NCBI GenBank assembly: GCA_041674225.1
Contig: JBAYWG010000001.1
Coordinates: 254,667 to 318,666, forward strand
Source of the DNA: Minisyncoccota bacterium
Lineage (GTDB): Bacteria > Patescibacteriota > Minisyncoccia > Phycocordibacterales > JAACPR01
Length of the DNA: 64,000 bases
Direction: 5' to 3'
A model generated the notes under the pieces. The model did no database searches, had not been told where the DNA came from, and was given only the letters and a program-made list of their open reading frames with translations. Shown one piece after another: positions 7,712 through 24,875 of the stretch; position 1 is the first letter of the stretch, and every line of letters starts with the position of its first letter. The translations under genes and the position numbers were made by a program.

Positions 7712-7718
7712 AAATTAA

Positions 7719-8447
7719 TTATTTTATAAAATGAAAACAGCCACATGCATATTTCTCTCCTAACAGTAAATTAATATCAGCGTTTCTAATTAGTCCACCA
7801 TCTTTAGAATCTTCAGGTATCAAAGAAAACTCTTTCAATCTCAATTCTGGAAACAGTTTTAAAACTTGATCATATGAATATATTCTGTGAGCGTTCCATT
7901 CTATTCTAGGTTCATCACTAATAGGCGTAACAAACAAAAGCGATCCATCTTTTTCTAAAACTCTAGATAATTCCTTGCAAGCATCAATATCTCCATCTGG
8001 ATTAATCGGGTCACCGTATCTTCCCAGTCCGATGTGTTCAATTGTATGCATACACGAAAGCGATTTAATACTTCCACTTTCAAAAGGTAGACTCATCAGG
8101 TTGCCCGACTTACTTTCTAAATTACTTAAAATCAAATCCGCGGGTCTTAAATCATAGAAATCCACCGGCACAAAAGCAGATACGATTCCAGAAAAATAAA
8201 GACTTGAAGATATATCAATATGTTTTTCCGGTTTGATTTCTGAAATAACTCTTGCAGCCCAAGACGTATGATACACATAATGCCTGTCAAAATTTGTTCC
8301 AATAGTTTTGTCTTTTATTTGAGGATAAAAATCTTTCAGCTTAATTGTAAATCTTTTTTCTTTATCAACTTTTAAAAATGAAAAATAATCTTTCAGAACA
8401 AAAGGAGTTAGTAATGTTTTGATAATTTTTTTTAAAAACTTTTTCAT
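7719..8447 (-). CDS. putative SAM-dependent methyltransferase (DUF268-like)
   Basis: 242-aa protein with a class I methyltransferase-like core (LSCMHTIEHIGLGRYGDPINPDGD); located in the glycan cluster. Confidence 0.45.
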   Translation of the reverse strand: MKKFLKKIIKTLLTPFVLKDYFSFLKVDKEKRFTIKLKDFYPQIKDKTIGTNFDRHYVYHTSWAARVISEIKPEKHIDISSSLYFSGIVSAFVPVDFYDLRPADLILSNLESKSGNLMSLPFESGSIKSLSCMHTIEHIGLGRYGDPINPDGDIDACKELSRVLEKDGSLLFVTPISDEPRIEWNAHRIYSYDQVLKLFPELRLKEFSLIPEDSKDGGLIRNADINLLLGEKYACGCFHFIK

Positions 8448-9172
8448 TGTTTAAATTTATTCAGAAGATTTTTTATATAAATCTTTGAAAATATTTTTCC
8501 GCCTCCGTGTCTTTTACTTATTAAAATCAATTCTTTGTCCATGTCACTCTTATTCTTTGAATTCGATTTTTGGTCTTCTCTGACCATAAAGTTTGATAGC
8601 ACCAAATCTATATATTTACTTGGTTTTTCTTTAATCAATTTAATATATAAATCATATTCCATCCAGTATTCCAAACTATCATCTAGGTATCCAACTTTTC
8701 TAACTAAGTCTAAATCATAAAAAGATGAAGGCTGATAAATTAGGTTACCTGAATTTATTAGTTTGTGAGATGATATGTTTTCAGGTGGTGTGTTAACAAG
8801 TGTACTGGTGTCACTCACAGAATTACATTTTCCATACAATATTGAAATCTCTCCTTTATTTTTTGAAAATTCTTCTGCCACTTTAGATAAAATATTTGGC
8901 TCATAATAATCATCGGCATTTATCCAAGCCACAACATCACCTGTAGCAATTTTAAAGCCTTTGTTTATTGCATCAGACTGACCTTTATCCTTTTCAGAAA
9001 TCCAAAATATTTTATCTCCGTAAGACTTTAATATATCAACAGTTTCATCTCTCGACCCGCCGTCAATTACAATCAACTCTTTGTTTTCGTAATCTTGATC
9101 AATAACGCTATCTATCGTTCTTTTAATATATCGGCCCAGATTATAGCTGGGAATTATTATTGATATTTTCAT
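8444..9172 (-). CDS. family 2 glycosyltransferase
   Basis: MKISIIIPSYNLGRYIKRTIDSVIDQDY...LIVIDGGSRDETV...WINADDYY. Confidence 0.8.
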   Translation of the reverse strand: MKISIIIPSYNLGRYIKRTIDSVIDQDYENKELIVIDGGSRDETVDILKSYGDKIFWISEKDKGQSDAINKGFKIATGDVVAWINADDYYEPNILSKVAEEFSKNKGEISILYGKCNSVSDTSTLVNTPPENISSHKLINSGNLIYQPSSFYDLDLVRKVGYLDDSLEYWMEYDLYIKLIKEKPSKYIDLVLSNFMVREDQKSNSKNKSDMDKELILISKRHGGGKIFSKIYIKNLLNKFKQ

Positions 9173-10251
9173 TATTTAAGTTTATCTAAAATTGCATCAA
9201 TTATTTTTCTTGATGCATCACCAACACCAAATGGATTCTCCCAGATTTTATTAAAATCGATCATTGTTTTAACAGAAGATAATATTTTCTCAGAATCAGC
9301 GCCGGCAAGTATATTTGCTCCAACCTCTATCGTTTCCGGCCTTTCTGTATTGTCCCTTAATGTTACGCAAGGCACCTTAAGAATACATGCCTCTTCTTGT
9401 ATTCCTCCAGAATCAGTCATGATTATTTTTGAATTTTTCTCTAACTGTATAAAATCAAGATAATCAACAGGTTCTATAATAATAATTTTTTCGCATGGTT
9501 TAATTTTAAATTGATCAATCATTTTGATTAATCTAGGGTGTCCTGGCAATAATATAGGCAACTTGGTAAATTCAGATACTTTTTCAAGTCCAACAAAAAT
9601 ACTTCTTAATCGTGATTCATTATCAACGTTTTCTTGTCGATGGATTGTAGATAAAATATATTCACCAGACTTCAGATTTACTCGCTTTAATATATCTGAA
9701 GTCTCTGAAATTTTTGAATGATCAATTAATGCATCTACAACAGTGTTTCCGGAAAGTAATATTTTATCTTCAGAAATTCCTTCATTTTTTAAATTATTAA
9801 TGGCATCAACTGTTGGTGCAAACAATAAACTCGATATGTGATCAACCATCACTCGATTAGTTTCTTCTGGCATTTGTGTGTCAAAAGATCTCAGTCCCGC
9901 TTCAATATGACCTACTGGAATATTTAACTTTACCGCAGCAAGAGCTCCTGCTAGTACACTGTTTGTGTCTCCTTGTACCAAAACAAAATCCGGTTTCTCT
10001 TCTATTAATTTTTCTTCTATGGAAATCAACATTCTTCCGGTTACCTGACCATGCGTTCCAGACCCAACATTTAAATTATGTTTTGGTTTTGGTAATTTCA
10101 AACAATCAAAAAATATCTCATCTAAGTTTTTTGAATAATGCTGATTTGTGTGAATTAGCACAAAATCAATTCCTCTAGACTCAAGTTCCTTGATTGTTGA
10201 AGAGAGTTTTATTATTTCCGGCCTGGTTCCAAATATTATGCAAATTTTCAT
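9172..10251 (-). CDS. wecB: UDP-N-acetylglucosamine 2-epimerase (non-hydrolysing)
   Basis: MKICIIFGTRPEIIKLS...HIEAGLRSFD...HRQENVDN; start placed at the internal Met, which abuts the upstream gene. Confidence 0.85.
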   Translation of the reverse strand: MKICIIFGTRPEIIKLSSTIKELESRGIDFVLIHTNQHYSKNLDEIFFDCLKLPKPKHNLNVGSGTHGQVTGRMLISIEEKLIEEKPDFVLVQGDTNSVLAGALAAVKLNIPVGHIEAGLRSFDTQMPEETNRVMVDHISSLLFAPTVDAINNLKNEGISEDKILLSGNTVVDALIDHSKISETSDILKRVNLKSGEYILSTIHRQENVDNESRLRSIFVGLEKVSEFTKLPILLPGHPRLIKMIDQFKIKPCEKIIIIEPVDYLDFIQLEKNSKIIMTDSGGIQEEACILKVPCVTLRDNTERPETIEVGANILAGADSEKILSSVKTMIDFNKIWENPFGVGDASRKIIDAILDKLK

Positions 10252-10256
10252 ATTTA

Positions 10257-11392
10257 TTATCTTAATTTTATTGTTTCTATTATATTTAAAAATGATTTTT
10301 CCCAAAGTTTGATATTAAAATTTTCCAGAACACTCCCCCTTTGCTCAGTAGAAAATTTATCAACATTATCCAAAACATCTGCTATAGACTTAGCGATTGA
10401 ACCGGGGTCTGGGTTTGTTTTGTATGCAGGAAGATCTTTTAAGCCCGCCACATCTGTAACAATTGTTGCCGTACCACAAGACATTGACTCCAATGCGCTC
10501 AAAGAGGTTCCCTCTTTGTCTAGTGTTGGAATTAAGGTGATTAATGAGGTGTTGTAATAATTAATCATCTCGTCTCTGTTGGCTTGACCTTTAAATATTA
10601 CCTTCTCATTTAAATCATATTTTGCAACCAGATCTATACAGTAATTATAATATTTACCAACACCACTCCCAACGATTAACATCTTAAAATCGGGATTAGT
10701 TTTTATAAATATATTGAATGACTCAATCGCAAGATGAATACCTCTGTCATAACTTATATTTCTTGGAACTAAAATTACTTTTTCTTTTTGAAATGTTTCC
10801 TTGGTCATTTTGAAAACTTCTGTATCTACACAATTTGGTACAAACCAAACATTTTTTTAACTTCCGAAAACATATTTTTTCCTGGCTCAACAGAGTAACC
10901 AATTTCTCTTAGAAAATTTGTGTCATTAGCCACAATAAAAACATCTTTGTTTTTTAGGTGTTTACTTATGTACTTATGATATATATCAAAAAAAACATTT
11001 TTTTTAGTATTACTCCATAAAACACCATGAGAAATTATGATGACTTTCTTGTGCCATTTCAATGGCGGATAATGAAATGGATAGTGACAAATTAGTATAT
11101 CTTGGTCTTTTAAGATTTTCTTAGAAAGAAATAAACCAATATTAAACGCAAACCAACCCGCGTTATATATAAATGGGTGTAATAAAAAATATCTCGGAAT
11201 TTGTGTAACAAAAAATATTTTTGTTCCGGTATTATTTTTTTGTTTTACTTTTCTTTGTAAAACACTAGCATCAAAATTATTTTCAACTAATATTTTATTT
11301 AGATTATCAATATAAACTTGTTGTCCGCCACTTATTGGCAAATAATGCATTGTAACCTGGCAAATCTTTGTTTTAGTTTTGTTTTCTTGCAT
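10257..11392 (-). pseudogene. GT4 glycosyltransferase split into N-terminal (10826-11392) and C-terminal (10257-10808) ORFs by a frameshift in an A7 tract
   Basis: The N-terminal ORF ends ...FSEVKKMFGLYQIV*; in the other frame the sequence continues VWFVPNCVDTEVF (the GT4 PNGVD motif), followed by a typical GT4 C-terminal domain; one extra A in the run at 10852-10858 restores a single reading frame. Confidence 0.6.
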
Positions 11393-12197
11393 GAATTATT
11401 TTCGTAAAATTTTGAGAATCTTCATCCCAAATATTTATTTTATAACCAAGTTTCTCAAGAAAATTAGACACATGAAACATCATTGGTATCGTGTGTATTT
11501 CAATAATCAATTCTGGACCATTTTGCTGTAATGTATTTATCCCACCTTCTAGTACCTTTAGCTCAGCTCCCTCAACATCAATTTTTATAAAATCTGGTAC
11601 TGATAATTTCTTTTGAGATATTAAATTATCTATAGTGTTTGATTCTACTTTAATTTTCTTGAAATCTTCGTAAGAATTTTCTTGCAAAGGAGGAGTCACA
11701 TCTTTTATATAACCACCAGATGAAGTAGCATCATCAGCATTTCCTACATTAAATTCCACTTCACCAACCTTGTTTGTGATTGCTTCTTTATTTATAAAAA
11801 TTCTTTTTGAATATGCTTCGTTAATATTTATATTTGACTCTAACCACTTTTGATTACTTGGGTTTGGTTCAAATGCATATACCAATGTTTCTTCACCGAA
11901 GGCTGATGAAAAAAATAATGATAAGTAACCAATGTGAGCTCCAATATCCCAAACAACTTTGTTTTTATTTGCGGCTAATTTTGATATCAAATCTATTTCA
12001 TAAGAGCCATCCAACATGCTCATATATGTTTCTGGAATTTCATTAGGCATAAGCAATGAAATATCTTTTTCCAAAACTTTTACGTTGTGAACATTCCAGG
12101 AATCCTTCTTTTTATCAAAATGTAAAAAATATTTTTTAAGTTTTTTAAACCAAGATTTCGGTGGGGAATTCCATATTTTCTTTAAGATTTTTTTCAT
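11373..12197 (-). CDS. FkbM-family methyltransferase
   Basis: VVWDIGAHIGYLSLFF...VYAFEPNPSN...FIKIDVEGAELKVLEGG. Confidence 0.75.
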   Translation of the reverse strand: MKKILKKIWNSPPKSWFKKLKKYFLHFDKKKDSWNVHNVKVLEKDISLLMPNEIPETYMSMLDGSYEIDLISKLAANKNKVVWDIGAHIGYLSLFFSSAFGEETLVYAFEPNPSNQKWLESNININEAYSKRIFINKEAITNKVGEVEFNVGNADDATSSGGYIKDVTPPLQENSYEDFKKIKVESNTIDNLISQKKLSVPDFIKIDVEGAELKVLEGGINTLQQNGPELIIEIHTIPMMFHVSNFLEKLGYKINIWDEDSQNFTKIIHARKQN

Positions 12198-13333
12198 ATA
12201 AGTATTTTTGACAATATCTCTTTAAAATTTTTATTAAATGATTCTAAACTATAATCTCTTAAAATATTTTCTACTATTCCAATCGAACGTCTTTTGAGCT
12301 CAATATTATCTAATGTTTGCGACAAATCCAATGAGTCTAATACTCCATCAGCACTTATTTCTCTTATCAAGATAGATAATTCATCTTGTTTAATAGATGC
12401 CTCATTAGTTAAAATTGGTATTAATCCCCCGTTAGCACAAACATTCACAACTGAAGTTGGCATAGCTTCGGAACAAGACGGTAAAATTACAAATGCACAC
12501 TTCGTTAATATTTTTTTAAAATTATCAGACTCAATTTTTACAAAGTCATATAAATGTATATTTTCACTTTTTAAATTTTCAGAAAATATTTTTACAAATC
12601 TTTTTTCATTCTGAAGTGGAGCACATACATGGAGATGGAGATCTTGTCTCTTTGAAAAAGCGTCCAATAAAACATCTAAACCCTTATGAATCATTCCTCC
12701 ACCACTAAAGAAAAGAAAATGTTTTTTTCCTTCAGAAAAATCTTTATCATTAATAATTTCCATTGGATTAAGTAATTCTATGAATGAAACGTTTAAATTA
12801 TAACAATCCGTATTTGTATATTTTTTATATGTATCAACCAGGTAATGGTCTCCTAGTAACACTAACGCATCGGAACCTATCGTCTGTATTGCATAATCTT
12901 TTTCTATAAATCTTAATGATTCTTTTAAAAGAACACCGCTTTTTTCGTAAACTTCAATACCCCGTTTTATTGTTGCCACATTGCTAAAATAAGGATGTCT
13001 TCCTGTACCATAGTAAATCCTTAATATTTTTTTAGAAGTAGAAAAACTTTTATCAAAAATATCCCCAAATCCAAATACAACATCATAATCTTCGTAAGCA
13101 ATTTTTTTAGTGCTGTTATAATCCACAACATCACAAATGAAACCTAGTTCATCAAATACTTTAGCAATTACCAAACTTTCTTGTATGTTGGTATGAGTTT
13201 TTAAGTTAGGTCTTTTAAAAGGAAAGGTAATGTAGGATATTAATACTTTCTTTTTGTGATTTCTGTTGAAAACATTACGGAGAATTAATTGCCTATTATA
13301 TATCGAGTATATTTTTCGTAGAATTTTTAACAT
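12194..13333 (-). CDS. glycosyltransferase, GT4-like (GT-B fold)
   Basis: C-terminal FLFFSGGGMIHKGLDVLLDAF...FVILPSCSEAMPTSVVNVCANGGLIP. Confidence 0.6.
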   Translation of the reverse strand: MLKILRKIYSIYNRQLILRNVFNRNHKKKVLISYITFPFKRPNLKTHTNIQESLVIAKVFDELGFICDVVDYNSTKKIAYEDYDVVFGFGDIFDKSFSTSKKILRIYYGTGRHPYFSNVATIKRGIEVYEKSGVLLKESLRFIEKDYAIQTIGSDALVLLGDHYLVDTYKKYTNTDCYNLNVSFIELLNPMEIINDKDFSEGKKHFLFFSGGGMIHKGLDVLLDAFSKRQDLHLHVCAPLQNEKRFVKIFSENLKSENIHLYDFVKIESDNFKKILTKCAFVILPSCSEAMPTSVVNVCANGGLIPILTNEASIKQDELSILIREISADGVLDSLDLSQTLDNIELKRRSIGIVENILRDYSLESFNKNFKEILSKILI

Positions 13334-13335
13334 AT

Positions 13336-14262
13336 CTAATTATTATTTAGTTTCCTCTTTAATAATCTTATTCGATATAATAAATTAGAATATAATCTTT
13401 CCAACATATTTGCCTTATAAAAATTATTGAATTGCACTCTATCAAGATAATGGTTTGCTTCTATTTTTTCAAGTAACATATCACTTAACTCTATTTCTTG
13501 GGTTTTTCGAAATAAATTCTGATCCTCAATTGTTTTTGTTGTTGTGTGTGTTCCTTGAACTCCAATATTCGTAACCAAATTATGTTTTGGTGTTATGCTT
13601 AATCCTTTATTTAATACACATGTATAATTCCATTGTATATCCCATGTATTTACTAGGTTGTGATAGGCGTGGTTAAATGAATCTTTGTAGTATTGGTATA
13701 TTTTTCTATCTTTATAAACATCTTCAAATGAACCTTCTTTAATAAGAATAGGCCACTCTTTCATTTCAATGTCATACAAATCCCAAGCTCTTTTCCATGT
13801 CGCCCATCCCCATATCTGAAAATGATTAGAGAAAAAATAATCATCATGAATTTCCAAATTTTTTAAGTGGTGTGTACCAGAAATCATCATAACTTGATTG
13901 TCATTTTTATATCTCAAAAGTAGTTTGGAACAGAAACTAAAAAAAGATTTATTCGGTAGACAGTCGTCTTCTAAAATAATTCCCATTTCTACATTATCGA
14001 AAAACCAAGTTATGGCTGAACTTATCGCCAATTTACAGCCTAAATTTTCTTCTCTAAATAATGTTTTCACTTCGCAGTCCCAATCAATATTTTTTACAAT
14101 TGATCTAACTTCCCCACATCTCAAACGATCATTATCGTTATTAATCCTCGGACCATCTGCGGCGATAAACAAATATTTAGGTTTTGCATTACGTATCTCA
14201 TCAAAAACCCTCTGAGTTGTATCAGGTCGATTAAAAACTAAAAATAAAATTGGTGTTTCCAT
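13336..14262 (-). CDS. GT-A fold glycosyltransferase (HlpA/GnT-I-like)
   Basis: METPILFLVFNRPDTTQRVFDEIRNAKPKYLFIAADGPR... resembles GT13-like bacterial transferases found in O-antigen-type clusters. Confidence 0.5.
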   Translation of the reverse strand: METPILFLVFNRPDTTQRVFDEIRNAKPKYLFIAADGPRINNDNDRLRCGEVRSIVKNIDWDCEVKTLFREENLGCKLAISSAITWFFDNVEMGIILEDDCLPNKSFFSFCSKLLLRYKNDNQVMMISGTHHLKNLEIHDDYFFSNHFQIWGWATWKRAWDLYDIEMKEWPILIKEGSFEDVYKDRKIYQYYKDSFNHAYHNLVNTWDIQWNYTCVLNKGLSITPKHNLVTNIGVQGTHTTTKTIEDQNLFRKTQEIELSDMLLEKIEANHYLDRVQFNNFYKANMLERLYSNLLYRIRLLKRKLNNN

Positions 14263-15584
14263 TATCTTTTGTAATTTAAATTAAAAATTGATTTTGTAAT
14301 CAGTAAAAAATGAGCTCGACTATCTTTAAACAAAACAATTGAAAAATTAACAACTAGATATGAAATTATGGTTGCATACGCCGCTCCTGCAATACCCATT
14401 TTTGGGATCAAGATAATATTTAAAACAATATTCAACAAGGCACCAATAATAGTTGTGTATAATGTTATTTTGGTTAAATTCTTTGCAATCAAATACTTTC
14501 CAATTACTATACCCAATGAAACTGCTACCAAAGACCAAATATAAACTTGTAGGACAGGAGTGGCTCCGATGTATTGTTCTCCAAAAAGTAATGTGATTAT
14601 TTTCTGAGCAAAAATTGAAACGACCGCTGAAAAAATTAAGGAAGACCAGAACATTACAAAATACAATTTGCTGAGCCTGCTTTCAAATTTTTCATTACTC
14701 ACACTTAATGAATTTATTATCGCTGGAAATATGGAAGCCCCTATGATGGTTGGTATGAGATACCAAATTTCTGAAAGTTTAACACTAATTGCATATATAC
14801 CCGTAGCTTCATTATTCAAAAAATGATTAATCATAATTTGATCAATTTTCATATAAACACCCACAGACAAGCCAGATAGAATCATGGGCCAAGAATCTCT
14901 TAACAAACTTAATGCAATTTTCTTATCAAATTTCCAATTCTTGAAGTGGTGACCACTTTTCAAAAACGCAACAATCAAAAATAGTGCAACTAAAGCTATT
15001 TCAACAACGTATATAAACAATAACCAGAAAATACCTTTATTTAATAATATAACTCCAAGTTTTAACACAGCTGAAATGATTCCAGACAATATTTGAGCTT
15101 TAACGATTTTTTTTGATAATACTTGTGATTGAAAATAAGTTTCTATAACATTAAAAGCCTGAGGCACGTAATGAAGTGAAAATAACCAAATAAGAATTAG
15201 AGTAAACATTTCGTCTGTAATGGCAAAAGATGCTAGAAAAATAAAAAATATAGCCAGTACGGATCCAGATATCTTTATAAAAAAAGCAGTTCCAATAATC
15301 TTATCTTTTATATTGTGATTTTTAACTATCTCTCTATTTACAATTTCATCAATACCTAAGGATGATAGGACACCAAAAATTCCTACAAAACTTATAGCAA
15401 AACTCATCAAACCATAATTCGATGGACCTAAATATCGAGCAACATATATCCCAACAAAAAACGAAATCGCTAAACTAAATATCCTACCTGCAAAAAGCCA
15501 ACCGGTGTTTTTGAAGTATTTTTGAAAGCCCTGATGCCTCCAAATTTCTGTTGTTTTACCCTTTATAGCCAGTAAGTTTTTCAT
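14262..15584 (-). CDS. wzx: Wzx-type oligosaccharide flippase (polysaccharide biosynthesis protein family)
   Basis: 440 aa with about 12 predicted TM helices and a Wzx-like N-terminus (ISFFVGIYVARYLGPSNYGLMSFAISFVG). Confidence 0.7.
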   Translation of the reverse strand: MKNLLAIKGKTTEIWRHQGFQKYFKNTGWLFAGRIFSLAISFFVGIYVARYLGPSNYGLMSFAISFVGIFGVLSSLGIDEIVNREIVKNHNIKDKIIGTAFFIKISGSVLAIFFIFLASFAITDEMFTLILIWLFSLHYVPQAFNVIETYFQSQVLSKKIVKAQILSGIISAVLKLGVILLNKGIFWLLFIYVVEIALVALFLIVAFLKSGHHFKNWKFDKKIALSLLRDSWPMILSGLSVGVYMKIDQIMINHFLNNEATGIYAISVKLSEIWYLIPTIIGASIFPAIINSLSVSNEKFESRLSKLYFVMFWSSLIFSAVVSIFAQKIITLLFGEQYIGATPVLQVYIWSLVAVSLGIVIGKYLIAKNLTKITLYTTIIGALLNIVLNIILIPKMGIAGAAYATIISYLVVNFSIVLFKDSRAHFLLITKSIFNLNYKR

Positions 15585-15667
15585 TTAATTAATTCCAAAT
15601 ATACCTTACTTTCAGGCTCTAAGCTAGAAAATCAACAAATACCTACACCGCATCTCATTTAATAGTA

Positions 15668-15697
15668 GTTGACATAATCATGTTTATGTGATAGTAT
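15668..15697 (+). promoter_or_regulatory. consensus sigma70 promoter TTGACA-17-TAGTAT
   Basis: ttgacataatcatgtttatgtgatagtat, about 14 nt upstream of the ATG at 15711. Confidence 0.5.
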
Positions 15698-15710
15698 CTT
15701 ATTTGAGTAT

Positions 15711-15992
15711 ATGAACCGTATCACCCACATCCTGACAGCTTTCCTGGCCATTTTCGGCCTTGGAAAGATCACTGAAAAGAACAACGAGCTTTCTACCGTC
15801 GAGCATGAAGTTCCGACAGAAGAAGTTCAGACACCCGGAGTCAACCGCGTCATCGCTGCTGGCGAAAAGAAAGTGCTCTACCGGTCTGGAAGGACCGGTA
15901 AACGCATCGTCGCCAAGATCGTCGACAGGAAAGGCACGGATTTCCGTGTCAGACAACTCGGTGGAAGGATCGAATTCACAGTCGTCGGCTAA
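15711..15992 (+). CDS. small hypothetical protein (93 aa) with strongly GC3-biased, foreign-looking codon usage
   Basis: ORF MNRITHILTAFLAIFGLGKITEK...; local GC about 50 percent versus about 33 percent in flanks; third codon positions mostly G/C; own promoter and terminator; no obvious SD. Confidence 0.45.
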   Translation: MNRITHILTAFLAIFGLGKITEKNNELSTVEHEVPTEEVQTPGVNRVIAAGEKKVLYRSGRTGKRIVAKIVDRKGTDFRVRQLGGRIEFTVVG

Positions 15993-16028
15993 GCCAACGC
16001 CTGATTCCGAACCGAACACCGAACAACG

Positions 16029-16061
16029 CGGCGCCCTTACCCAAGGGCGCCGTTTTTCTTT
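16029..16061 (+). terminator. rho-independent terminator (ggcgccc-ttacccaa-gggcgcc plus T-run)
   Basis: 7-bp GC stem and T5CT4, located 37 nt after the stop of the 15711-15992 ORF. Confidence 0.65.
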
Positions 16062-16070
16062 TATAAAACA

Positions 16071-16098
16071 AAAAGGCCTGAAATCTCAGGCCTTTTTG
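16071..16098. terminator. bidirectional terminator hairpin (aggcctgaaatctcaggcct)
   Basis: 8-bp stem with A5 upstream and T5 downstream; serves the minus-strand gene ending at 16120. Confidence 0.55.
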
Positions 16099-16119
16099 TT
16101 TGTATTTTATAAAAAAGAA

Positions 16120-16809
16120 TTAATCTTTTTTAATTTCATTCTTTATCTTCGCAATATAATCCCTAGCAGCATCTTGACCTCCTAGACCAAAAGCCAAACC
16201 TAAAGCGATAGCCAAAGCTACGATTAGACCAGTGAAAATTGTTTGGATAAATGTTGTTGCGATTTGCAACTCAATAAGAGCAGCCAAAATTGCTGAGATC
16301 CAAATTGCCCACTTAGCAACTGCACCAGCAAAATTTGCTGAAGCAACTCCAGCACCTTTTGCGCTTGCAACGATAACCTTTCTCAATGCTTCAGCAATAA
16401 CTGCAGCAATAATTAGAATTAATACAGCAGCAATAACTTTTGGAAGATACCCAATAGCAATATTAGCTAGAAAAGCTGTGATGTGATTCAATCCGATGAT
16501 ATCGAATGAAACAATCAAAACCACTACCACCAAATACCATCGTGCAATTTCTCCCAAGAATTTTCCTGAGTTTAATTTAACTCCCATTTTGTGCACCAAA
16601 TCATCTACGCCCGCTGTTTTTAGAAGTGTGTCCAATTTAATAGCTTTTACAATTTGTTCTACAACTCTAGAAACCAAACCTCCAATTAACCACCCTACAA
16701 CAAAAACAATTACTGCAACTAAAACAGAAGCAGCAACTGCTGTTAGACTACTTCCAACACCTTGTGCCGACATTGAAAGTGTACCTACAAGATCATTAAA
16801 ACTATTCAT
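16120..16809 (-). CDS. integral membrane protein with repeated conserved TM-helix segments
   Basis: Multiple TM helices and GVASANFAGAVAKW-type repeats; the start is uncertain (GTG at 16860 or ATG at 16809). Confidence 0.5.
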   Translation of the reverse strand: MNSFNDLVGTLSMSAQGVGSSLTAVAASVLVAVIVFVVGWLIGGLVSRVVEQIVKAIKLDTLLKTAGVDDLVHKMGVKLNSGKFLGEIARWYLVVVVLIVSFDIIGLNHITAFLANIAIGYLPKVIAAVLILIIAAVIAEALRKVIVASAKGAGVASANFAGAVAKWAIWISAILAALIELQIATTFIQTIFTGLIVALAIALGLAFGLGGQDAARDYIAKIKNEIKKD

Positions 16810-16871
16810 GTGATATTTAAAAATACTGATAATGGGTTCAAGATTTATTTTTAACCCCACTATTTATTGTA

Positions 16872-17444
16872 TCACCTAGCATATTCAATCCCCACTTTAT
16901 CCACAACAACTTTATGAGGAAATTCGAACACATCACGCACCAATCTATCGCATACACCTTGTCTATATTTAAAATCTGCAGTATCAAGTAAAGCAAATCT
17001 TAATTCTCGGCCAATTTCAGATTCCATATTACCAATAACAGTTTTCAGTCGGTTTGGACTCACATCATCCCCTACTACTAGAATATCTAAGCGACTTTCC
17101 GGGTTTTGGATAAACACACCAGATACAATTACAGCTTTAATTTTCCCGATTCCAGATAATCTCTTTGAGATTTCTTTATTTTGCATTGGAGCTGAGTGCA
17201 TCAAAAGAGTTTGAATTGGGTCTAGAAATGGAAAAGTTTTGTTTAAAAAGTATCCTTGGTTTTTTTTCTTTTTTAAAAGACCAGCTCTTGTAAGGAGATT
17301 TAATTCTTGCAAAGCGGCTTTTGAAGAAATTTTTGCTCTTTTTGAAACCTCCTTTCTTTCAAAAAAAGCTTCATCGTTGAATAGGAAAAGTTTCATCACT
17401 TTCACTCGTGCCAGACTTCCAAATAATTTTCCTAATGCTTCCAT
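16872..17444 (-). CDS. hypothetical protein: N-terminal winged-helix, C-terminal minimal nucleotidyltransferase-like domain
   Basis: N-terminal LGKLFGSLARVKVMKLF...AALQELNLLTRAGLL (wHTH-like); C-terminal VSGVFIQNPESRLDILVVGDD resembles the G[SG]x9-13Dh[DE] NTase motif. Confidence 0.4.
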   Translation of the reverse strand: MEALGKLFGSLARVKVMKLFLFNDEAFFERKEVSKRAKISSKAALQELNLLTRAGLLKKKKNQGYFLNKTFPFLDPIQTLLMHSAPMQNKEISKRLSGIGKIKAVIVSGVFIQNPESRLDILVVGDDVSPNRLKTVIGNMESEIGRELRFALLDTADFKYRQGVCDRLVRDVFEFPHKVVVDKVGIEYAR

Positions 17445-17537
17445 ATCAATTTTAATTATAAACAAAAACCATTAAAACAAAACTCAAAATAATAATAAAA
17501 ACAAAACCTAATATAAATCCGCTGCCTTTCATATATT

Positions 17538-18704
17538 TTACTCTAGTATTATAGCAGAAGTTTTCGTTGCTAAATCCCCAGTTGGAAAAAATAGATTCAA
17601 AGATTGATTTGCTCGGAAAAAATCCTCGGAATTATCACTGAACAGTGTCTCATCAAAAGTGATCTTTGCTTTAGGACTCAAAATAGTGTCTTGTGGAAAA
17701 GTAAAATCCGCCTTTTTATCTTCAGATTTTATTCGCCATAAACCTATGTTTATTTCATTTGAATCTTGATTTTCTATTTCAATTCCGTTTTCCTTTATAT
17801 TTAAAGCTAATTTGGGTTTTGCTACATAAACAATAGTCCTAGAGACTGCTTGCCTTATACCCGACACAGCATTTAAAACAACGTTATAAACACCTTCATT
17901 TTTGTAAAAATGCTCAATTTTCTTGCCTCTTTTTTCGTTTCCATCACCAAAATTCCAAAGATATTTGGCTCTGTGTAAACCTTTGTTTTCTCCTGTTTTG
18001 ACCTCAAAAATTATTGGTGATTTTATACTCGACAATCTTTCTCTGCCAATCGAAATCTCCAATTCTGTGACTTCTTTTGCTTTGACAGCAGAAGCGACTG
18101 AGGAATGTGAAGATATGTTTGTGATTGTAGTATTTTCGGTGGTGGTTGCGTTTGATTCTATTTGTTCTGGTGTTGATGCTTCTGTGGCATTTGGCAATCC
18201 TGGGGTTGGTTTTGCGCTAATTAGAAACTCTTCTTTAAACTGCAAAGAATTTCCATCTCCTTTTGCACCCAAAGTGTCCGAATAGCTAATTTCGTGTATT
18301 TTTTGGCCACTAGAATTTATCAAAACTAAAACTTCGCCAGTATTTGTAAGGCTAAAAACACTATCAAAAAGCGTACCGCTAAAATCTGGATTATCAATTA
18401 AAAACTTTTCATCGTTATCGGCAATAATTGCATAACCACCAGCCGGAATAACGGCATTTCCAAAGATTAATTTCACAGCATGATTGACCGAGCTTTCTAA
18501 TAATTTCCAGTTGGAGAAATCTATATCACTAGAAGTATTGTTGTACACCTCCACCCACTCCCTACCAGAATCAGTCCCAGAAACATCGTACATAATCTCG
18601 TTTATTTTCATTGCAAAAAGTGGGCTCGGAGAAATCAGGACCACCAGTATTAATAAAATATTTACTACTTTCGTTTTTATTTTTTGAATTTTTATAGGTT
18701 TCAT
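17538..18704 (-). CDS. lamin-tail-domain (LTD) containing secreted/membrane protein
   Basis: After the signal/TM (VVNILLILVVLISPSPLFA): INEIMYDVSGTDSGREWVEVYNNTSSDIDFSNWKL...GGYAII, typical LTD; the ORF-track N-terminus overlaps the terminator hairpin, so start at the internal Met. Confidence 0.6.
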   Translation of the reverse strand: MKPIKIQKIKTKVVNILLILVVLISPSPLFAMKINEIMYDVSGTDSGREWVEVYNNTSSDIDFSNWKLLESSVNHAVKLIFGNAVIPAGGYAIIADNDEKFLIDNPDFSGTLFDSVFSLTNTGEVLVLINSSGQKIHEISYSDTLGAKGDGNSLQFKEEFLISAKPTPGLPNATEASTPEQIESNATTTENTTITNISSHSSVASAVKAKEVTELEISIGRERLSSIKSPIIFEVKTGENKGLHRAKYLWNFGDGNEKRGKKIEHFYKNEGVYNVVLNAVSGIRQAVSRTIVYVAKPKLALNIKENGIEIENQDSNEINIGLWRIKSEDKKADFTFPQDTILSPKAKITFDETLFSDNSEDFFRANQSLNLFFPTGDLATKTSAIILE

Positions 18705-18773
18705 TGCGCAAAGAATATCAGAATGAACCTTAAATATATTTAAAGAAGTATTAAAAGTTAAAAAAGAAAAACA

Positions 18774-18802
18774 AAAAGCCGCCCTTGCGGGCGGCTTTTT
18801 GC
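18774..18802 (-). terminator. rho-independent terminator (gccgccc-ttgc-gggcggc) after the 18853-20838 gene
   Basis: GC stem with flanking A/T runs. Confidence 0.6.
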
Positions 18803-18852
18803 CTATCAATACTAGATTAGTTATGTGAAATTTAATTCACTATAAGTAATTA

Positions 18853-20838
18853 TTAGTTCTTGATTGTTTGTGTAGGAATTGAGTATTCACTTTCGTCCGG
18901 AACTGTGTAAGCAGCTTGTGTAGCTGTTGAAGTAGTTGCGAAGTTAATTGAATCTAGTTCAAGTCCGTATTGTCCTGTTGTTCCTGGGTCAAGTTCTACG
19001 ATGATTTCAAATGTTTCTGAAGTTCCTTCAGCAACTTTGTATCGGTCGTTTGTTTCAACATCAGCAGATGTATCTGAGATACGAGCTGAAGATGTTCCTG
19101 TAAATGTTGAACCTGTAACAGTAGCAACGAATCCTGCTGTTGATGAAGATGTTGTAGAAACGCTATCGTAAATCCAAGCATCTTCTTCTAGAGCTGTAAT
19201 TCTAATTTCGAATGTGTAAATACCTTCGTTATCTGTCAAAGTTGTGTCTACGTTCTCTCGTAGAGATGAACCTTCGCTCACACCTTCAACTACGATACCA
19301 GTTGTTCTTAGAGTATGTGTAGCACCTTCTTGTGTTCCAGATACTACTGAAGAGTCACCGTTTGCTGCTCCTTCTGCTGTTAGAGCATTTGTACCAAAGT
19401 CAGATCCGTTGATTTTACCAACTCCGAATTGTACTGATTCACCGTTATCAAAGTTAGCAAAAGAGCTTCCTGTTGAATTGAATTCAGCCATTACAACAAC
19501 TTCGATTCTTGAATCTTTTTCAAGTTCAATTTCGTCTCCATTGTCTTCAAAGTCGAATGTGTATTCTCCAACTCCAGCTGTAGTTGATGCAGTGTCGTAA
19601 TCAAATTCTTGACCATCGATTTCGATAGTAAGGTCAATTACAACGTCTTCTACATCGTCATCAGTTGTTGAAGCGATAATTGTAAGAGTATTTAGTAATA
19701 CATCTGCACTATCATCGTTATCAATTTCGAATCGGAATACTTCAAATGGTCCTGAGTTGTCGTCTGTATCTACAACCAAGATAGATGCGTCTAGATCATC
19801 ATCACTTGAACGAATTGTAACATCTCCAGCGTCAGCAGCTTCGATTTCGAATTCTGTTGATTCTGTGTTTGAACCTTCGTAGTGATCAATTCCTTTTCCA
19901 TCCACGGCTCGGATTCCATCTGTTGGGATCCAAATTTTCCATGATTGTGTTAGGTCACTATCATCAATGCTATCTGAAGTTGTAACTTCAACTTCGATTA
20001 GAGCGTCATCACCTTCTTCAACTACAGTATCCAATCCAGCGAATCTTACTTCGTAGGCTCGGCTAGTTGTAGGAGTTTCTGTGCTGTCTTCTCTTGACCA
20101 GTCATCTTCGCTATCTACATCCATTGAATCAACTTCGTCTCCGTTGATGAATAGAGCAATAGATTCGATTTGATTCCAAGGCTCATCTTCTAGAGTTTCT
20201 GTAACTGATTCAAGTCTGATGTCTACACGGTCGATTGAAACGTCTCCATCTTCAACTTCGAATTCAGCAGCAAAAACTTTTGCTGTTTCTCCTTCTTCAA
20301 GGTCTTCGTTAGAGTATGAGTTTTCTCGATCGTAACTACTTAGACGAGCTTCTTCTCCGTTAAGAGAACCGCTTGTTGTTGTAGTAGTTGTAGTTGTAGT
20401 TGTTGTACAGTCTCCTGCAACCTTAGCTCGTGTAACTGGGCCAAAGTATCCAGCAGCTGGTGAGATCATCACTGATGCTTGGTATTTAGCCAAAGCTGAT
20501 TGTGTAAGAGCTCCAAAGTATCCCTTTGAAGTTCCTGCAGGGATTGATAATGTTCCTTTAGCTTCTAGGAAAGATTGTAGTGAAACTACATCTGCTCCTG
20601 TTGAACCTAAAGTAAGGTCTCGTGTGTATGTACCACATGAAGCTGTGCTACTTGTTGAAGTAGTTGTGCTTAATGCAGCCATAGCTGCAGCAGCTTTGTC
20701 AGCTGGGATAACACCCATACTTACTAGAAGTTGGATATCAGCAGCTGTTAGGGCTGATGCTGTTGGAGCAACTACGATTGTAAGCGCAAACGCTACAACC
20801 ACAGCTGAACCAGCAATTTTTGAAAAAATGTTTTTCAT
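18853..20838 (-). CDS. secreted acidic cell-surface protein: N-terminal PG_binding_1-like domain, poly-Thr linker, D/E-rich beta-rich region
   Basis: Signal peptide MKNIFSKIAGSAVVVAFALTIVVAPTASA; DLTLGSTGADVVSLQSFLEAKG...GYFGALTQSALAKYQ...GYFGPVTRAKV; a T13 run; then about 480 aa of highly acidic sequence. Confidence 0.65.
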   Translation of the reverse strand: MKNIFSKIAGSAVVVAFALTIVVAPTASALTAADIQLLVSMGVIPADKAAAAMAALSTTTSTSSTASCGTYTRDLTLGSTGADVVSLQSFLEAKGTLSIPAGTSKGYFGALTQSALAKYQASVMISPAAGYFGPVTRAKVAGDCTTTTTTTTTTTSGSLNGEEARLSSYDRENSYSNEDLEEGETAKVFAAEFEVEDGDVSIDRVDIRLESVTETLEDEPWNQIESIALFINGDEVDSMDVDSEDDWSREDSTETPTTSRAYEVRFAGLDTVVEEGDDALIEVEVTTSDSIDDSDLTQSWKIWIPTDGIRAVDGKGIDHYEGSNTESTEFEIEAADAGDVTIRSSDDDLDASILVVDTDDNSGPFEVFRFEIDNDDSADVLLNTLTIIASTTDDDVEDVVIDLTIEIDGQEFDYDTASTTAGVGEYTFDFEDNGDEIELEKDSRIEVVVMAEFNSTGSSFANFDNGESVQFGVGKINGSDFGTNALTAEGAANGDSSVVSGTQEGATHTLRTTGIVVEGVSEGSSLRENVDTTLTDNEGIYTFEIRITALEEDAWIYDSVSTTSSSTAGFVATVTGSTFTGTSSARISDTSADVETNDRYKVAEGTSETFEIIVELDPGTTGQYGLELDSINFATTSTATQAAYTVPDESEYSIPTQTIKN

Positions 20839-20864
20839 TTGTTTTTTTATAAATTTTAAAAGTG

Positions 20865-20905
20865 CAACTACTAAATCGTTATTTTAAAAATGATTAGTAG
20901 TTGAA
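20865..20905. promoter_or_regulatory. imperfect 13-bp inverted repeat (GCAACTACTAAATC-N17-GATTAGTAGTTG) in the 5' leader of the surface-protein gene
   Basis: Seen directly; lies 27-67 bp upstream of the ATG at 20838. Confidence 0.3.
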
Positions 20906-21273
20906 CATTGGTAATTAATTACTAACGTTTTCGACTTCAATTTTAAATCGGAAGTCGAGCGATAAACACCATCTATTTATTTATAGTCGCCTACAAATAA
21001 ATAGGCTGGCTTCAATGTTTTAGTCTGAGTTTCTGACATACATCCATTACTGAATTTATCGTACGGGAAATACCTATTTGATGACGAATTTTTATTCAAT
21101 TATCAACGATCAATTCGTACCGTCTTACTCCTCCGTCTATAGGTACATTGCATATTGTATCGCACCCTAAGGCACTCGACACATAAACAAATGTGGATAA
21201 CTGAGTTTTTTAGGCTCAATCCACATCCCGACAGCATACAACAAAAAAGGTTAAAAATCAACAGGTTTGACCG

Positions 21274-21987
21274 CTATATAATAGAGTAAGTACTCCATCT
21301 TCTTTCACCTTCTTTTTTGATCAAATTCAAGGACACCATCTTTATCAACTCTCTCTGAATTGTCTTTTCTGAGCAGTTTTTTATTTTAGAAGAAATGTCT
21401 TTTATGGTGACTTTTTCATTGTCCTTTATAATTTTCATTATCTCTTCGTTTCTATTATTAAGCTCTACATTTTCTTTTTGTCCTTTATAAACATCTTCTG
21501 TATGTTTAATATCTTTAGGTTTATCAGTGTCTGAATCTTGTCCTTTATGTCCTTTATAAGAATCTGCTGGTTCTGGGAGTTTTTGTCTGGACTCCACTAC
21601 AAAAAAAGATTTCTTGAAGTCTGTGTCTCCGATAAAGTTGTCCTTGTGATTTTCGATTTCCTTATTTAGTCGAGAGATCTCATCTAGAATAATCTGCACA
21701 TTGTTTTGGTTCATCATATTAGAGCTAGCACCTAGCAATAGTAGTGTCTTTATCTCCAAAAAGTCTTGGGTTAGCTTTGATGAAACTCCTGAGTCAGAAT
21801 GTCCGCTATTAAATATAATAATGTCTTTTATTAAAACATCTGCGATAGATCTTATGTTTGTCTTTAAAGAAATCCTATCAGACAAATGGTTGGTAGATAG
21901 ATATAGCGCCAGGACAATCCTTTCAACCTTTTTAAATAAGAAAACTTTGAAGCTATTGTAGTTTTTAGGAAATACTTCTGTGTCCAT
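21274..21987 (-). CDS. hypothetical protein with C-terminal winged-helix DNA-binding domain
   Basis: C-terminal ...IMKIIKDNEKVTIKDISSKIKNCSEKTIQRELIKMVSLNLIKKEGERRWSTYSI resembles DeoR/MarR-type wHTH; divergent from ftsK. Confidence 0.45.
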   Translation of the reverse strand: MDTEVFPKNYNSFKVFLFKKVERIVLALYLSTNHLSDRISLKTNIRSIADVLIKDIIIFNSGHSDSGVSSKLTQDFLEIKTLLLLGASSNMMNQNNVQIILDEISRLNKEIENHKDNFIGDTDFKKSFFVVESRQKLPEPADSYKGHKGQDSDTDKPKDIKHTEDVYKGQKENVELNNRNEEIMKIIKDNEKVTIKDISSKIKNCSEKTIQRELIKMVSLNLIKKEGERRWSTYSII

Positions 21988-22141
21988 AAAGACATTCTAG
22001 ATAAATCTGAGACAGAATACAATTGTGGAGGTTGTTGAGGAGTGTTGTAATTGTGTCTTTTATATAATAATCCGACTAATATCAAATGTCTTTAATAAAT
22101 AAAATTTTAAATAGTTTTTCACATAGTGGCTAAAAATAAGC

Positions 22142-24400
22142 ATGTTATTATATAGAGACTTATTATCATCAATTAAACCAACAAAAGTGGCCAAGAAAAA
22201 AAACAGAAATAAAGATAGAAAGGATGTTGTGGAAGAGAGCGTTTCTTTTCTAAAAGAAGAAACCGTAGAAGCCATCATCGCTGTGGTATTTCTATTAGTT
22301 GGAGTGTTCCTGACTTTCGCAGCTTTTGGAAGTGCGGGATTTCTAGGAGACGCTGTCTATAGAGTATCTAATTTTCTTTTTGGAATTGGTTATTATTTAA
22401 TTCCTATAATTCTATTCGGATTAGGAATTTCTTTTTTAGCATCCCTGAAACACAACTTGGCAATCACAAAAATCGTTGGAGCTATCTTCATCTTCATCTC
22501 CGGATTAGGAATTGTTGATTTAGTTTTTGAAAAAGGAGGATTGATCGGAGACAAGCTGTCATTCGTACTTGAAAAACTTTTGGGATTTTGGGTGGCTTTG
22601 ATTTTCTTATTTTCGGTTTTACTAATTTCAGTTTTGGTAATATTCAACCTTTCACTAAAAGTAGATTTCAAAAAAATATTCGCTAAAAAAGAAAAATCTT
22701 TGACTGAGGAAGAGGATGCAATTTTGACAAAAGGAATTGAAAAAAATCTTCCACAAGAAAATCCAAATGATGATTATGATGACGAAGAGGATGCTCAGGT
22801 GCCGGTGATTTCTCCTACTCCAGCAGTAGCTCAATCTGCGAAACCAAGCGGATTGATTTTCTTTGCAAAAAGATCAGCACAACAAACTTTTACTCCCCCA
22901 CCACTTTCTCTTCTGCAAAAAGATTCTGGTAAACCAGAAGTAGGAGACGTGAAAGCAAACGCAAACATTATCAAAAGAACACTTTCAAATTTTGGTATTC
23001 AAGTAGAGATGGATGAAGTTTCAATTGGTCCGTCAATCACACGTTATGCTTTGAAACCTGCCGAAGGAGTAAAACTTTCTAGAATTGTTGCTTTGCAAAA
23101 CGACCTTTCTCTAGCACTTGCCGCCCACCCTCTCCGAGTCGAAGCTCCTATTCCTGGAAAGTCTCTAGTTGGTATCGAAATTCCAAACTCAATTAAAACT
23201 ACAGTTGGACTTGGTTCACTTATCAAAGATCCTACTTTTAATGATCCTTCAAAACCATTGAGTGTTTGTTTAGGAAAAGGGATCACAGGAAAAGCTACAA
23301 TTGCCAACTTTGCAAAAATGCCTCACGTACTTATCGCCGGAGCTACTGGTTCAGGAAAATCTGTAACAATTCACGCAGTTGTGACTTCTCTACTATATAA
23401 AAATCATCCAGACCAACTGAAATTCATTATGGTTGATCCAAAGAGAGTTGAGCTTACTCTTTATAATAAAATTCCTCACCTTCTAACTCCTGTTATCACA
23501 GATGCCAAAAAAGCTATTCTTGCTTTGAAATGGGCAGCAAAAGAAATGGATAGACGATACGATTTACTAGAAGAAAACGCAGTACGAGATATTCAGTCTT
23601 ATCATTCAAATATTTTGGAACCAGCTTTAAAGAAAGCAAAAGATAATCCTGAAGCTGAAGTACCAGAAAACATGCCTTATATAGTAGTAATCATCGATGA
23701 GTTGGCAGATATTATGCAGTCTTATCCTCGAGAACTTGAATCAGCGATTGTGCGCTTGGCTCAAATGAGTCGTGCGGTGGGTATTCACCTTTTGATTTCT
23801 ACACAAAGACCGAGTGTGAACGTTATTACTGGTTTGATTAAAGCCAACATCCCTACTCGTGTTGCATTGCAAGTGGCTTCACAAATCGATTCACGAACTA
23901 TTCTTGATATGCCTGGAGCTGAAAAACTTCTTGGAGCTGGAGATATGCTTTATCTTTCTGGAGAAATGTCACAACCGATTCGTCTTCAATCTGCTTTCAT
24001 TACAGAAAAGGAGGTGAAAGATGTTGTTGAATGGCTACAAAATCAATACAAAGATGAAATTGGTGTATCAAATATCGATCTTGGAGGAAATGCTAACAAT
24101 GATACAAATCCTATGGATGCAATCGCTGCTGCGGGGGGGTTTGATGAACCAGGAGACGACGATGATCTATATAACGAGGCGCGCCGGGTCGTGATTGAAG
24201 CAGGAAAAGCATCTACTTCATATATTCAAAGAAAATTGAGAGTTGGGTATTCTAGAGCGGCGCGCCTAATCGACCTATTAGAAGAAAGAGGTGTAGTTGG
24301 CCCTGCTGACGGCTCAAAACCTCGAGATGTAATAGGAGCTGGATCTTCTTCAGGAACACCACCTACAAACTACGATATAGACGAAGACGAACAATTCTAA
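22142..24400 (+). CDS. ftsK: DNA translocase FtsK/SpoIIIE
   Basis: N-terminal TM segments, Walker A GATGSGKSV, and a C-terminal gamma wHTH (YIQRKLRVGYSRAARLIDLLEERGVVGP). Confidence 0.9.
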   Translation: MLLYRDLLSSIKPTKVAKKKNRNKDRKDVVEESVSFLKEETVEAIIAVVFLLVGVFLTFAAFGSAGFLGDAVYRVSNFLFGIGYYLIPIILFGLGISFLASLKHNLAITKIVGAIFIFISGLGIVDLVFEKGGLIGDKLSFVLEKLLGFWVALIFLFSVLLISVLVIFNLSLKVDFKKIFAKKEKSLTEEEDAILTKGIEKNLPQENPNDDYDDEEDAQVPVISPTPAVAQSAKPSGLIFFAKRSAQQTFTPPPLSLLQKDSGKPEVGDVKANANIIKRTLSNFGIQVEMDEVSIGPSITRYALKPAEGVKLSRIVALQNDLSLALAAHPLRVEAPIPGKSLVGIEIPNSIKTTVGLGSLIKDPTFNDPSKPLSVCLGKGITGKATIANFAKMPHVLIAGATGSGKSVTIHAVVTSLLYKNHPDQLKFIMVDPKRVELTLYNKIPHLLTPVITDAKKAILALKWAAKEMDRRYDLLEENAVRDIQSYHSNILEPALKKAKDNPEAEVPENMPYIVVIIDELADIMQSYPRELESAIVRLAQMSRAVGIHLLISTQRPSVNVITGLIKANIPTRVALQVASQIDSRTILDMPGAEKLLGAGDMLYLSGEMSQPIRLQSAFITEKEVKDVVEWLQNQYKDEIGVSNIDLGGNANNDTNPMDAIAAAGGFDEPGDDDDLYNEARRVVIEAGKASTSYIQRKLRVGYSRAARLIDLLEERGVVGPADGSKPRDVIGAGSSSGTPPTNYDIDEDEQF

Positions 24401-24401
24401 G

Positions 24402-24833: not shown

Positions 24834-24875
24834 TTTTTTATAGGAATTTAATTACCAATAATTTAAAATACGAAC

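Follow-up and report, generated by a model that had tools for sequence, protein, structure and literature searches.

A GC-rich gene for a small, putatively exported protein, with its own predicted promoter and terminator, in an AT-rich Paceibacterota genome

In AT-rich genomes, islands of high GC content usually mark structured RNAs, and such islands flag the genes of rRNA, tRNA, RNase P RNA and similar molecules. SgrS/SgrT and RNAIII/hld are dual-function RNAs; they are short, independently transcribed and strongly terminated, they encode a small protein and they fold better than expected, and the locus considered here resembles them in these respects. This locus is a GC-rich mini-gene in a 64-kb stretch of DNA (contig JBAYWG010000001.1), hereafter called the window, from a metagenome-assembled genome of Candidatus Paceibacterota. 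The original prediction took it for either the recently acquired gene of a small secreted protein or a structured RNA. From the pattern of its substitutions, we conclude that the frame at 15711-15992 is a protein-coding gene under protein-level purifying selection. We consider it probable that the locus is a monocistronic small-protein gene, in which a promoter and a terminator surround a 93-codon open reading frame (ORF), itself under purifying selection and with three homologues at the corresponding locus of related Paceibacterota, and that its product is exported or exposed on the cell surface.

The unit is self-contained, as had been proposed, in that a near-consensus promoter and an intrinsic terminator of its own frame the ORF. 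Its parts are the following:

15669-15697, plus strand: sigma-70-type promoter, with the -35 box TTGACA at 15669-15674, a 17-nucleotide (nt) spacer, TG at 15689-15690 and the -10 box TAGTAT at 15692-15697; 10/12 matches.
15698-15710, plus strand: short leader, with a predicted transcription start at ~15704-15706, a 5' untranslated region (UTR) of 5-7 nt and no Shine-Dalgarno (SD) motif.
15711-15992, plus strand: coding sequence of 93 amino acids (aa) and a stop codon, recorded by NCBI as hypothetical protein WC087_01400.
15993-16027, plus strand: 3'UTR, C/A-rich, with CCGAAC repeated and, as read from the sequence, apparently unstructured.
16028-16063, plus strand: intrinsic terminator, with an 11-base-pair (bp) stem at 16028-16053 (8 GC pairs), a 4-nt loop and then TTTTTCTTTT.
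16066-16101, both strands: second, bidirectional terminator hairpin, common to the mini-gene and the convergent PF05552 gene (16120-16809, minus strand).

The strong terminator with its U-run downstream of the ORF had been read correctly, and so had the TTGACA-17-TAGTAT promoter, apart from its start coordinate, which was one nucleotide off. The pattern TTGACA-N14-TGnTAnnnT occurs only once in the window, both strands considered, and this occurrence is the mini-gene promoter.

The product belongs to no recognised family, as had been stated, and has no relative in Pfam, NCBIfam or PDB; in sequence searches of Pfam, PHROGs, NCBIfam, PADLOC and PDB, all matches (Pep1_7, L35Ae, GroES, DitB and UshA) were noise below threshold. 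The L35Ae match (NCBIfam E 0.056) is itself below threshold and was not taken as evidence of relationship. Among 1.84 billion representatives, searched exhaustively with phmmer, there was one real relative, P0002 (101 aa, E 2.7e-6), while P0003, a 1266-aa repeat protein with a phmmer E of 6.7e-5, was rejected at a profile comparison probability of 0.2%. P0002 is encoded on L004, a 904-bp Joint Genome Institute contig that is syntenic with the window. There, the convergent downstream gene for a PF05552 membrane protein is identical to that of the window in 71/74 residues, and the unit has the same -35 box, the same extended -10 layout, a near-identical terminator and a likewise GC-rich composition. 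Further homologues were retrieved from the contigs of relatives of the flanking PF05552 membrane protein, and two were found at the same place by synteny: L009 4977-5294 (106 aa) and L012 4884-5171 (96 aa). The three homologues have an amino acid identity of 32-35%; pairwise alignment scores among the four proteins, that of the window included, are 16-27 standard deviations above those of shuffled sequences, and all four are singletons in a collection of 15 billion proteins. When the two-sequence alignment was run as a profile against a protein index of 5.8 billion clusters, the two input sequences were the only ones recovered; no relatives turned up among viral contigs or in phage and plasmid records; and literature searches on such genes in the candidate phyla radiation (CPR) found nothing. 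Terminator-pattern scans of genome and metagenome contigs picked up only chance hairpins in genomes of high GC, L005-L008 (GC 0.585-0.67), in which the similarity is limited to the hairpin, and these were discarded. As far as these searches reach, the family is tiny, matches no known family and is so far restricted to a few Paceibacterota lineages.

Three overlapping ORFs are present at the locus, as had been noted: 15711-15992 (plus strand, 93 aa), 15699-16019 (minus strand, 106 aa) and 15760-16185 (plus strand, 141 aa). That the first of these is the one with a real product, which had also been proposed, is borne out by conservation that is specific to its frame and by the homologues at the same locus. 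When the window and L004 are compared by independent local alignments in six frames, the ORF frame scores 127 and the other five frames score at most 52-61. In 6/6 homologue pairs, the third codon position is the least conserved (e.g., 0.47/0.58/0.24), and the pairwise rate of nonsynonymous substitution (dN) is 0.52-0.84, while that of synonymous substitution (dS) is at least 1.5, saturated or not computable. Furthermore, 10/23 residues that are conserved between the window and L004 in the C-terminal half are encoded by different codons. The antisense frame is also open in all four homologues, because the codons TTA, CTA and TCA are absent, and its scores are far lower than those of the ORF frame. 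The signs of purifying selection are found together: the frame is kept, third positions vary most, dN is smaller than dS, and amino acid similarity is specific to the frame. Near-identical contigs have zero polymorphism inside the mini-genes, so that no population-level dN/dS was computable.

The control signals recur with the frame. A TTGACA -35 box, followed ~17 nt on by a TAnnnT -10 box, also lies ahead of the mini-ORFs in L004, L009 and L012, and ahead of those in L014 and L017, two loci with other occupants that are described below; the TG extension of the -10 box is readable in L004, L009 and L017. The distance from the -10 box to the ATG is 5-13 nt in all six loci, which points to leaderless or very short-leader mRNAs. 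In the window, the transcription start is placed by its distance from the -10 box, and the first 96 nt of the transcript are not unusually structured (folding z -0.44). The missing SD motif is no argument against translation, since none is evident in the 30 nt upstream of 20/20 called genes in the neighbourhood (window 6078-25928), and this suggests that leaderless or SD-independent initiation may be widespread in the organism. Several of these 20 gene starts have -10-like TATAAT boxes at most ~10 nt from the ATG.

At the 3' end, C/A-rich 3'UTRs precede the terminators of the homologues as well, and an in-frame TGA at 16002-16004, three codons past the TAA stop of the window ORF, aligns with the stop codon of L004. 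The terminator at 16028-16063 and that of L004 (514-551) are nearly identical, with one loop difference in the printed alignment, despite an ORF identity of only ~32-35% and ~50% identity at flanking synonymous sites. The terminator stems of L009 and L012 are wholly different from the stem that is common to the window and L004. The near-identity of the latter two may reflect either a specific sequence constraint or a recombination breakpoint at this point. At the position of the 16066-16101 hairpin, the relatives carry a longer, 'decorated' hairpin.

The product can be divided into three parts:

15711-15767, plus strand: hydrophobic N-terminal segment, aa 1-19, MNRITHILTAFLAIFGLGK, a putative signal peptide or N-in membrane anchor.
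15768-15839, plus strand: variable linker, aa 20-43, acidic in the window protein.
15840-15989, plus strand: basic C-terminal domain, aa 44-93, modelled as a five-stranded small beta-barrel.

A signal-like N-terminus followed by a basic region had been described, and the Kyte-Doolittle and charge profiles of the window protein contain both, the former being signal-like or anchor-like. In all four homologues, the Kyte-Doolittle maximum over 15 residues is 1.9-2.3 and lies at residues 4-19, K or R stands before the hydrophobic stretch and mostly acidic residues stand after it, and the n-region and h-region of a Sec-type signal peptide or N-terminal anchor can be recognised. The second codon position is most conserved in this segment, which AlphaFold2 (AF2) models as a helix, and from the charge around it an N-in/C-out topology is predicted. 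A signal-peptidase I site is plausible in the window protein, where G-L-G is followed by K, while the L-F-G-F-D/N of the homologues gives no fit. The linker has a net charge of -5 in the window protein and of -7, -3 and +1 in the homologues, so that it is acidic in 3/4. It is essentially unconstrained, with 2-7 identical residues of 17-25 and with dN close to dS, and its AF2 predicted local distance difference test (pLDDT) is below 50. The C-terminal domain has the motif R-I/V-V..G-H/E-K-K-L/V-x-Y-R-S-x-R-x-G-K...K-I-V-x-R...F-x-V-R-R...G...F and a net charge of +9 to +11. The first AF2 model (pLDDT 47.7) was unusable; a second model, with P0002 first (57 overall), is usable for the C-terminal domain only. 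The matches of this two-sequence model to SH3-like barrels are weak (Z at most 3.4, Foldseek E at least 0.2, 5-20% identity). Taken together, these features suggest a small exported or membrane-anchored protein that presents a basic beta-barrel, and the earlier description of a small secreted protein is plausible.

A small protein that begins with a hydrophobic helix and ends in a basic tail, encoded by a GC-rich, locally structured mRNA from a stand-alone gene with a strong promoter, could also be a membrane-active protein of the type I toxin kind, with a stable structured mRNA under the control of an antisense RNA. This is very improbable. The proteins have 93-106 aa with a folded 50-residue domain, which is above the typical size of type I toxins (less than ~60 aa), and no toxin was matched in PADLOC or Pfam; no convincing antisense promoter was seen inside or just downstream of the ORF, and the 5' region is unstructured, so that the start codon is not sequestered.

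The GC-rich segment stands out as had been claimed. In 200-nt windows, GC is 0.50-0.55 across 15700-16099, compared with 0.26-0.34 upstream, and it drops again afterwards. The interval 15694-16053 is the 360-nt window with the highest GC outside rRNA, at 0.531, which against a background mean of 0.355 and a standard deviation of 0.042 corresponds to a z of 4.1. The background had been put at one-third GC, which is too low, since the whole window has 36%. In the 93-codon ORF, GC at codon positions 1/2/3 is 0.56/0.39/0.61, with C at 0.43 of third positions. Third positions are thus G/C-biased, far above the other ORFs of the window, and not 'overwhelmingly' G/C as had been stated. Outside rRNA, these other ORFs have a third-position GC (GC3) of 0.16-0.42, with the exception of 0.46 for a doubtful 109-codon ORF at 27176-27505. 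The element does not resemble the rRNA next to it and occurs once in the window.

An abrupt jump in composition by ~20 GC points could mean that the assembly is chimeric or carries a contaminant insert, but this is extremely unlikely, and the worry raised in the original prediction is dispelled. The 451-nt element is 100% identical in the ENA assembly (234-kb contig) and in the Logan assembly of SRR6484325, two assemblies that differ by one single-nucleotide polymorphism over 14 kb, and NCBI has recorded protein WC087_01400 also on a 476-kb contig. The same sequence has in this way been assembled by different pipelines and from different sources, other metagenomes have homologous units at this very junction, and the host-type promoter, the terminator and the flanks are all contiguous.

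The composition is common to the family. The four members have a GC of 0.50-0.53 and a GC3 of 0.60-0.68, and they agree in their codon choices: ATC is strongly preferred to ATT and ATA; GTC, TTC and AAC are preferred; Arg is encoded by CGN; and TTA is absent. Between these members synonymous sites are saturated, with a position-3 identity of 0.24-0.47. From this saturation, together with an equal GC3 bias in all four, follows that the bias has been upheld in each lineage and is no relic of recent transfer. The GC-rich, NNC-biased codon usage is, on these alignments, an old and maintained property of the family. Translational selection was ruled out as the cause of the codon bias, since L11, NusG, SSB and RecA in the window have a GC3 of only 0.23-0.25 (ribosomal protein L11 0.23 and RecA 0.25).

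To see how the site of the mini-gene is used, consider its neighbourhood in the relatives, where it has the membrane-protein gene on one side and, on the other, the promoter of a stand-alone 23S rRNA gene, from which it is transcribed divergently. The sampled lineages fall into those with the family (4) and those with nothing at the site (5: L010/L011, L016, L021, L024 and L027), and two further loci, L014 (~4110-4470, minus strand) and L017 (~3750-4160, minus strand), have other GC-rich units there (GC 0.54-0.59). The latter units consist of a TTGACA promoter, a short leader, an ORF of 97 and 88 codons, respectively, and a strong terminator; they lack a hydrophobic segment, and the very basic proteins that they would encode (net charge +22 and +18) are probably disordered. 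Comparison of these mini-ORFs with the family by hidden Markov model, pairwise shuffling, nhmmer and blastn gave nothing significant, and they are therefore treated as unrelated occupants of the same site. No gene has been called for them on the retrieved contigs; the 88-aa sequence of L017 is in the protein collection from another contig, and in L014 a second, AT-richer small ORF adjoins the GC-rich unit. In L009, L012, L014 and L017, the 23S promoter region and the mini-gene are only ~100-200 nt apart. The 23S promoter region of the window, 5671-6065, is 93% identical to that of L009, and an inserted 9.5-kb island, 6078-15584, separates it from the mini-gene. The genes of the island, all of them on the minus strand, encode glycosyltransferases, a methyltransferase, an epimerase and a Wzx-like flippase.

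With regard to tempo, the window and L009 can be compared at the mini-gene and on both sides of it. The flanking protein is 91% identical, with a position-3 identity of 0.65, and the 23S leader is 93% identical, while the mini-genes share 33% of their residues and have a position-3 identity of 0.33. By this measure the mini-gene is more diverged than both flanks and evolves much faster than its neighbours. Moreover, L009 and L012 are the closest pair of mini-genes, yet they belong to different flank clades. Such a pattern could result from accelerated evolution or from alleles being exchanged through recombination between the conserved flanks.

The same observations bear on a recent horizontal import from a genome of ~50% GC, which would account for the atypical codon usage, a composition of the kind expected of horizontally acquired genes. 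The patchy presence, with absence in L010, L016, L021, L024 and L027, would be accounted for as well, and so would the incongruence by which L009 and L012 are closest in the mini-gene and distant in the flank; a divergence greater than that at neutral sites of the neighbouring genes fits replacement of alleles by recombination. However, four lineages, which represent two clades of the flanking gene, agree in position, promoter layout and architecture, and all copies keep the same bias though they are mutually saturated at synonymous sites. No relative outside these loci was found among the 1.84 billion protein representatives, the viral contigs or the phage and plasmid records, and neither mobility genes nor flanking repeats were seen near the mini-gene. 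The orthologous site is occupied in L004, L009 and L012, and no donor or mobile context came to light. A recent import is accordingly improbable, and the 'recently acquired' of the original prediction does not agree with a gene whose syntenic spot is shared by four or more Paceibacterota lineages, all of them with the same C-ending bias although their synonymous sites are saturated.

An extension of these observations, which we regard as possible though rather doubtful, is that the spot beside the stand-alone 23S promoter is a hypervariable cassette site of the Paceibacterota clade. Strongly expressed genes for very basic small proteins, those of the family as well as the L014 and L017 units, would be swapped there between conserved flanks, and their GC-rich, C-ending codons would be actively maintained against AT pressure. 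Possible causes of the maintained GC would then be a second function at the RNA level, extreme selection for mRNA stability or biased gene conversion linked to recombination.

A role of the RNA has to be weighed in its own right. It could be that the locus encodes a structured non-coding RNA (ncRNA), or a dual-function mRNA whose RNA role explains the maintained GC, and that the ORF is incidental or secondary. Compared with shuffled sequences, the whole transcript folds more stably, with a z of -5.6, and the ORFs of the homologues taken alone have z values in the range -2.3 to -5.4, with one at -1.5. In addition, a GC3 of ~0.6 persists though synonymous sites are saturated, the terminator is far more conserved between the window and L004 than the ORF, and the unrelated GC-rich units of L014 and L017 share the architecture with no gene called on their contigs. 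Most of the folding effect comes, however, from the terminator and a few local palindromes, and the opposite strand folds about equally well (z -4.6), as expected for local palindromes in DNA. The mini-gene had no match when the whole window was searched with Rfam 15 at gathering thresholds, and with E up to 10 over 15550-16150 no Rfam family was found; there were only sub-threshold, terminator-like matches at 16002-16150 and nothing of note over the ORF. ARAGORN found no tRNA or tmRNA at the locus, the only such gene in the window being tRNA-His at 62317-62388. RNAalifold, applied to the codon alignment of the four homologues, gave no shared structure, although with four sequences its power is low: the consensus had just -6.2 kcal/mol, in scattered short helices with hairpins at non-equivalent registers. 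Finally, substitutions follow the codon frame. An RNA as the principal product is therefore unlikely, and the 'structured RNA' of the original prediction is not upheld.

Several points weigh against the small-protein gene that we prefer. The codon alignment from which position identities, dN/dS and a part of the frame scores were calculated was derived from the protein alignment, which favours frame 0, and with only four homologues and saturated dS the tests of selection have little power. Folding of the ORF alone, with z values of -2.3, -1.5, -5.4 and -3.6 in the four homologues (the window ORF has -2.3), leaves some support for a role at the RNA level. The hydrophobic stretch is short (11-15 residues), and a plausible signal-peptidase site is found in the window protein only, so that export is read from these traits; AF2 confidence is low to moderate (overall pLDDT 48 for the first model and 57 for the second), and the matches of fold are likewise weak. 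Expression, translation and the start of transcription are predicted from the sequence.

Given the small-protein gene, the following chain of events can be envisaged. Transcription would start 5-7 nt ahead of the AUG, and translation would be initiated without an SD motif, as appears usual in the genome. The hydrophobic N-terminus would insert into or cross the membrane with the N-terminus inside and the C-terminus outside, and the flexible linker would present the strongly basic SH3-like beta-barrel outside the cell. There, the barrel might bind an anionic partner, such as envelope polymers, the surface of a host cell or nucleic acid. Fast change, together with replacement or loss in sister lineages, would be expected of a surface or interaction protein that is under diversifying pressure or exchanged by recombination.

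The decorated hairpins mentioned above for the relatives belong to a motif with a long perfect outer stem around the core (U)CGAACGGUCCUCGG-[variable, covarying hairpin]-CCUGCGGAUGUUCUC, followed by a U-run. Its copies are:

53029-53124, core 53053-53099, minus strand: decorated terminator, pattern match.
~55255-55345, core 55278-55323, minus strand: decorated terminator, pattern match.
L012 4736-4783, plus strand: decorated terminator.
L004 575-675, L014 ~3715-3800 and L009 ~4770-4850: decorated terminator, variant form.

Two copies of the pattern occur in the window, where 0 are expected by chance. The copies lie at the 3' ends of genes, e.g., after rplK, and in the relatives between the membrane-protein gene and the terminator of the mini-gene. 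No Rfam family matches the motif, which may be either an RNA motif not yet described or a palindromic mobile element of small size.

Two other parts of the window have structured elements. At 62985-63330 (minus strand), between a pseudouridine-synthase-like gene and rplS (L19), there is a GC-rich intergenic stretch with a folding z of -5.0 and a terminator-like hairpin with a U-run at ~62997-63045. Rfam with E up to 1 gave nothing beyond noise for this stretch, which may be an unannotated structured RNA or leader. The 23S rRNA gene at 2170-5754 (minus strand), listed in a 23S-5S unit with 1946-2051, has 3585 nt compared with the 2925 positions of the model. An insertion of ~300 nt at ~3452-3752 is the counterpart of a group I intron found by Rfam in the L009 copy, which is 97% identical, and at least one further insertion lies downstream of it. 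The 23S-5S unit has its own promoter, and no 16S gene is adjacent to it in the window. Insertions in rRNA, including group I introns in 23S, are known for CPR bacteria (PMC11270868).

The mini-gene is a caution for genome scans: in a CPR genome rich in AT, a GC island that has a promoter and a terminator, and so resembles an ncRNA gene, is a protein gene. It also defines an unnamed small family whose members combine a hydrophobic N-terminus and a variable linker with a basic domain that is modelled as SH3-like, and this family, possibly surface-exposed, is a candidate for interaction with host or environment in episymbiotic bacteria that are not yet culturable. With a GC3 of ~0.6, compared with 0.16-0.42 elsewhere, which is beyond mutation bias or ordinary translational selection, the locus is a compact test case for selection on composition.

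When these properties are compared with known systems, one likeness is to the lineage-specific small secreted or membrane-anchored hypothetical proteins of CPR/Patescibacteria. These are also shorter than 110 aa, with an N-terminal hydrophobic segment and no relative in Pfam, NCBIfam or PDB, and they also have a narrow taxonomic range and diverge quickly. The mini-gene differs from them in its own near-consensus promoter and terminator, in its fixed position and in a GC3 that has stayed ~35 points above that of the genome over a long divergence. With the SH3-like small barrels (Tudor, KOW, the C-terminal domain of retroviral integrase, Sso7d-like basic barrels), there are weak matches of fold and no relation of sequence to the mini-gene product. 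Compared with SgrS/SgrT and RNAIII/hld, neither a conserved structure nor a seed region was found in the mini-gene, and the ORF fills nearly the whole transcript. The island has the same compositional signature as the RNA genes for which the GC heuristic is used, but since it is protein-coding it is here a false positive. A lineage-specific small exported protein is as such an ordinary kind of object, and it is the compositional anomaly, together with the variable occupancy of the site, that is unusual.

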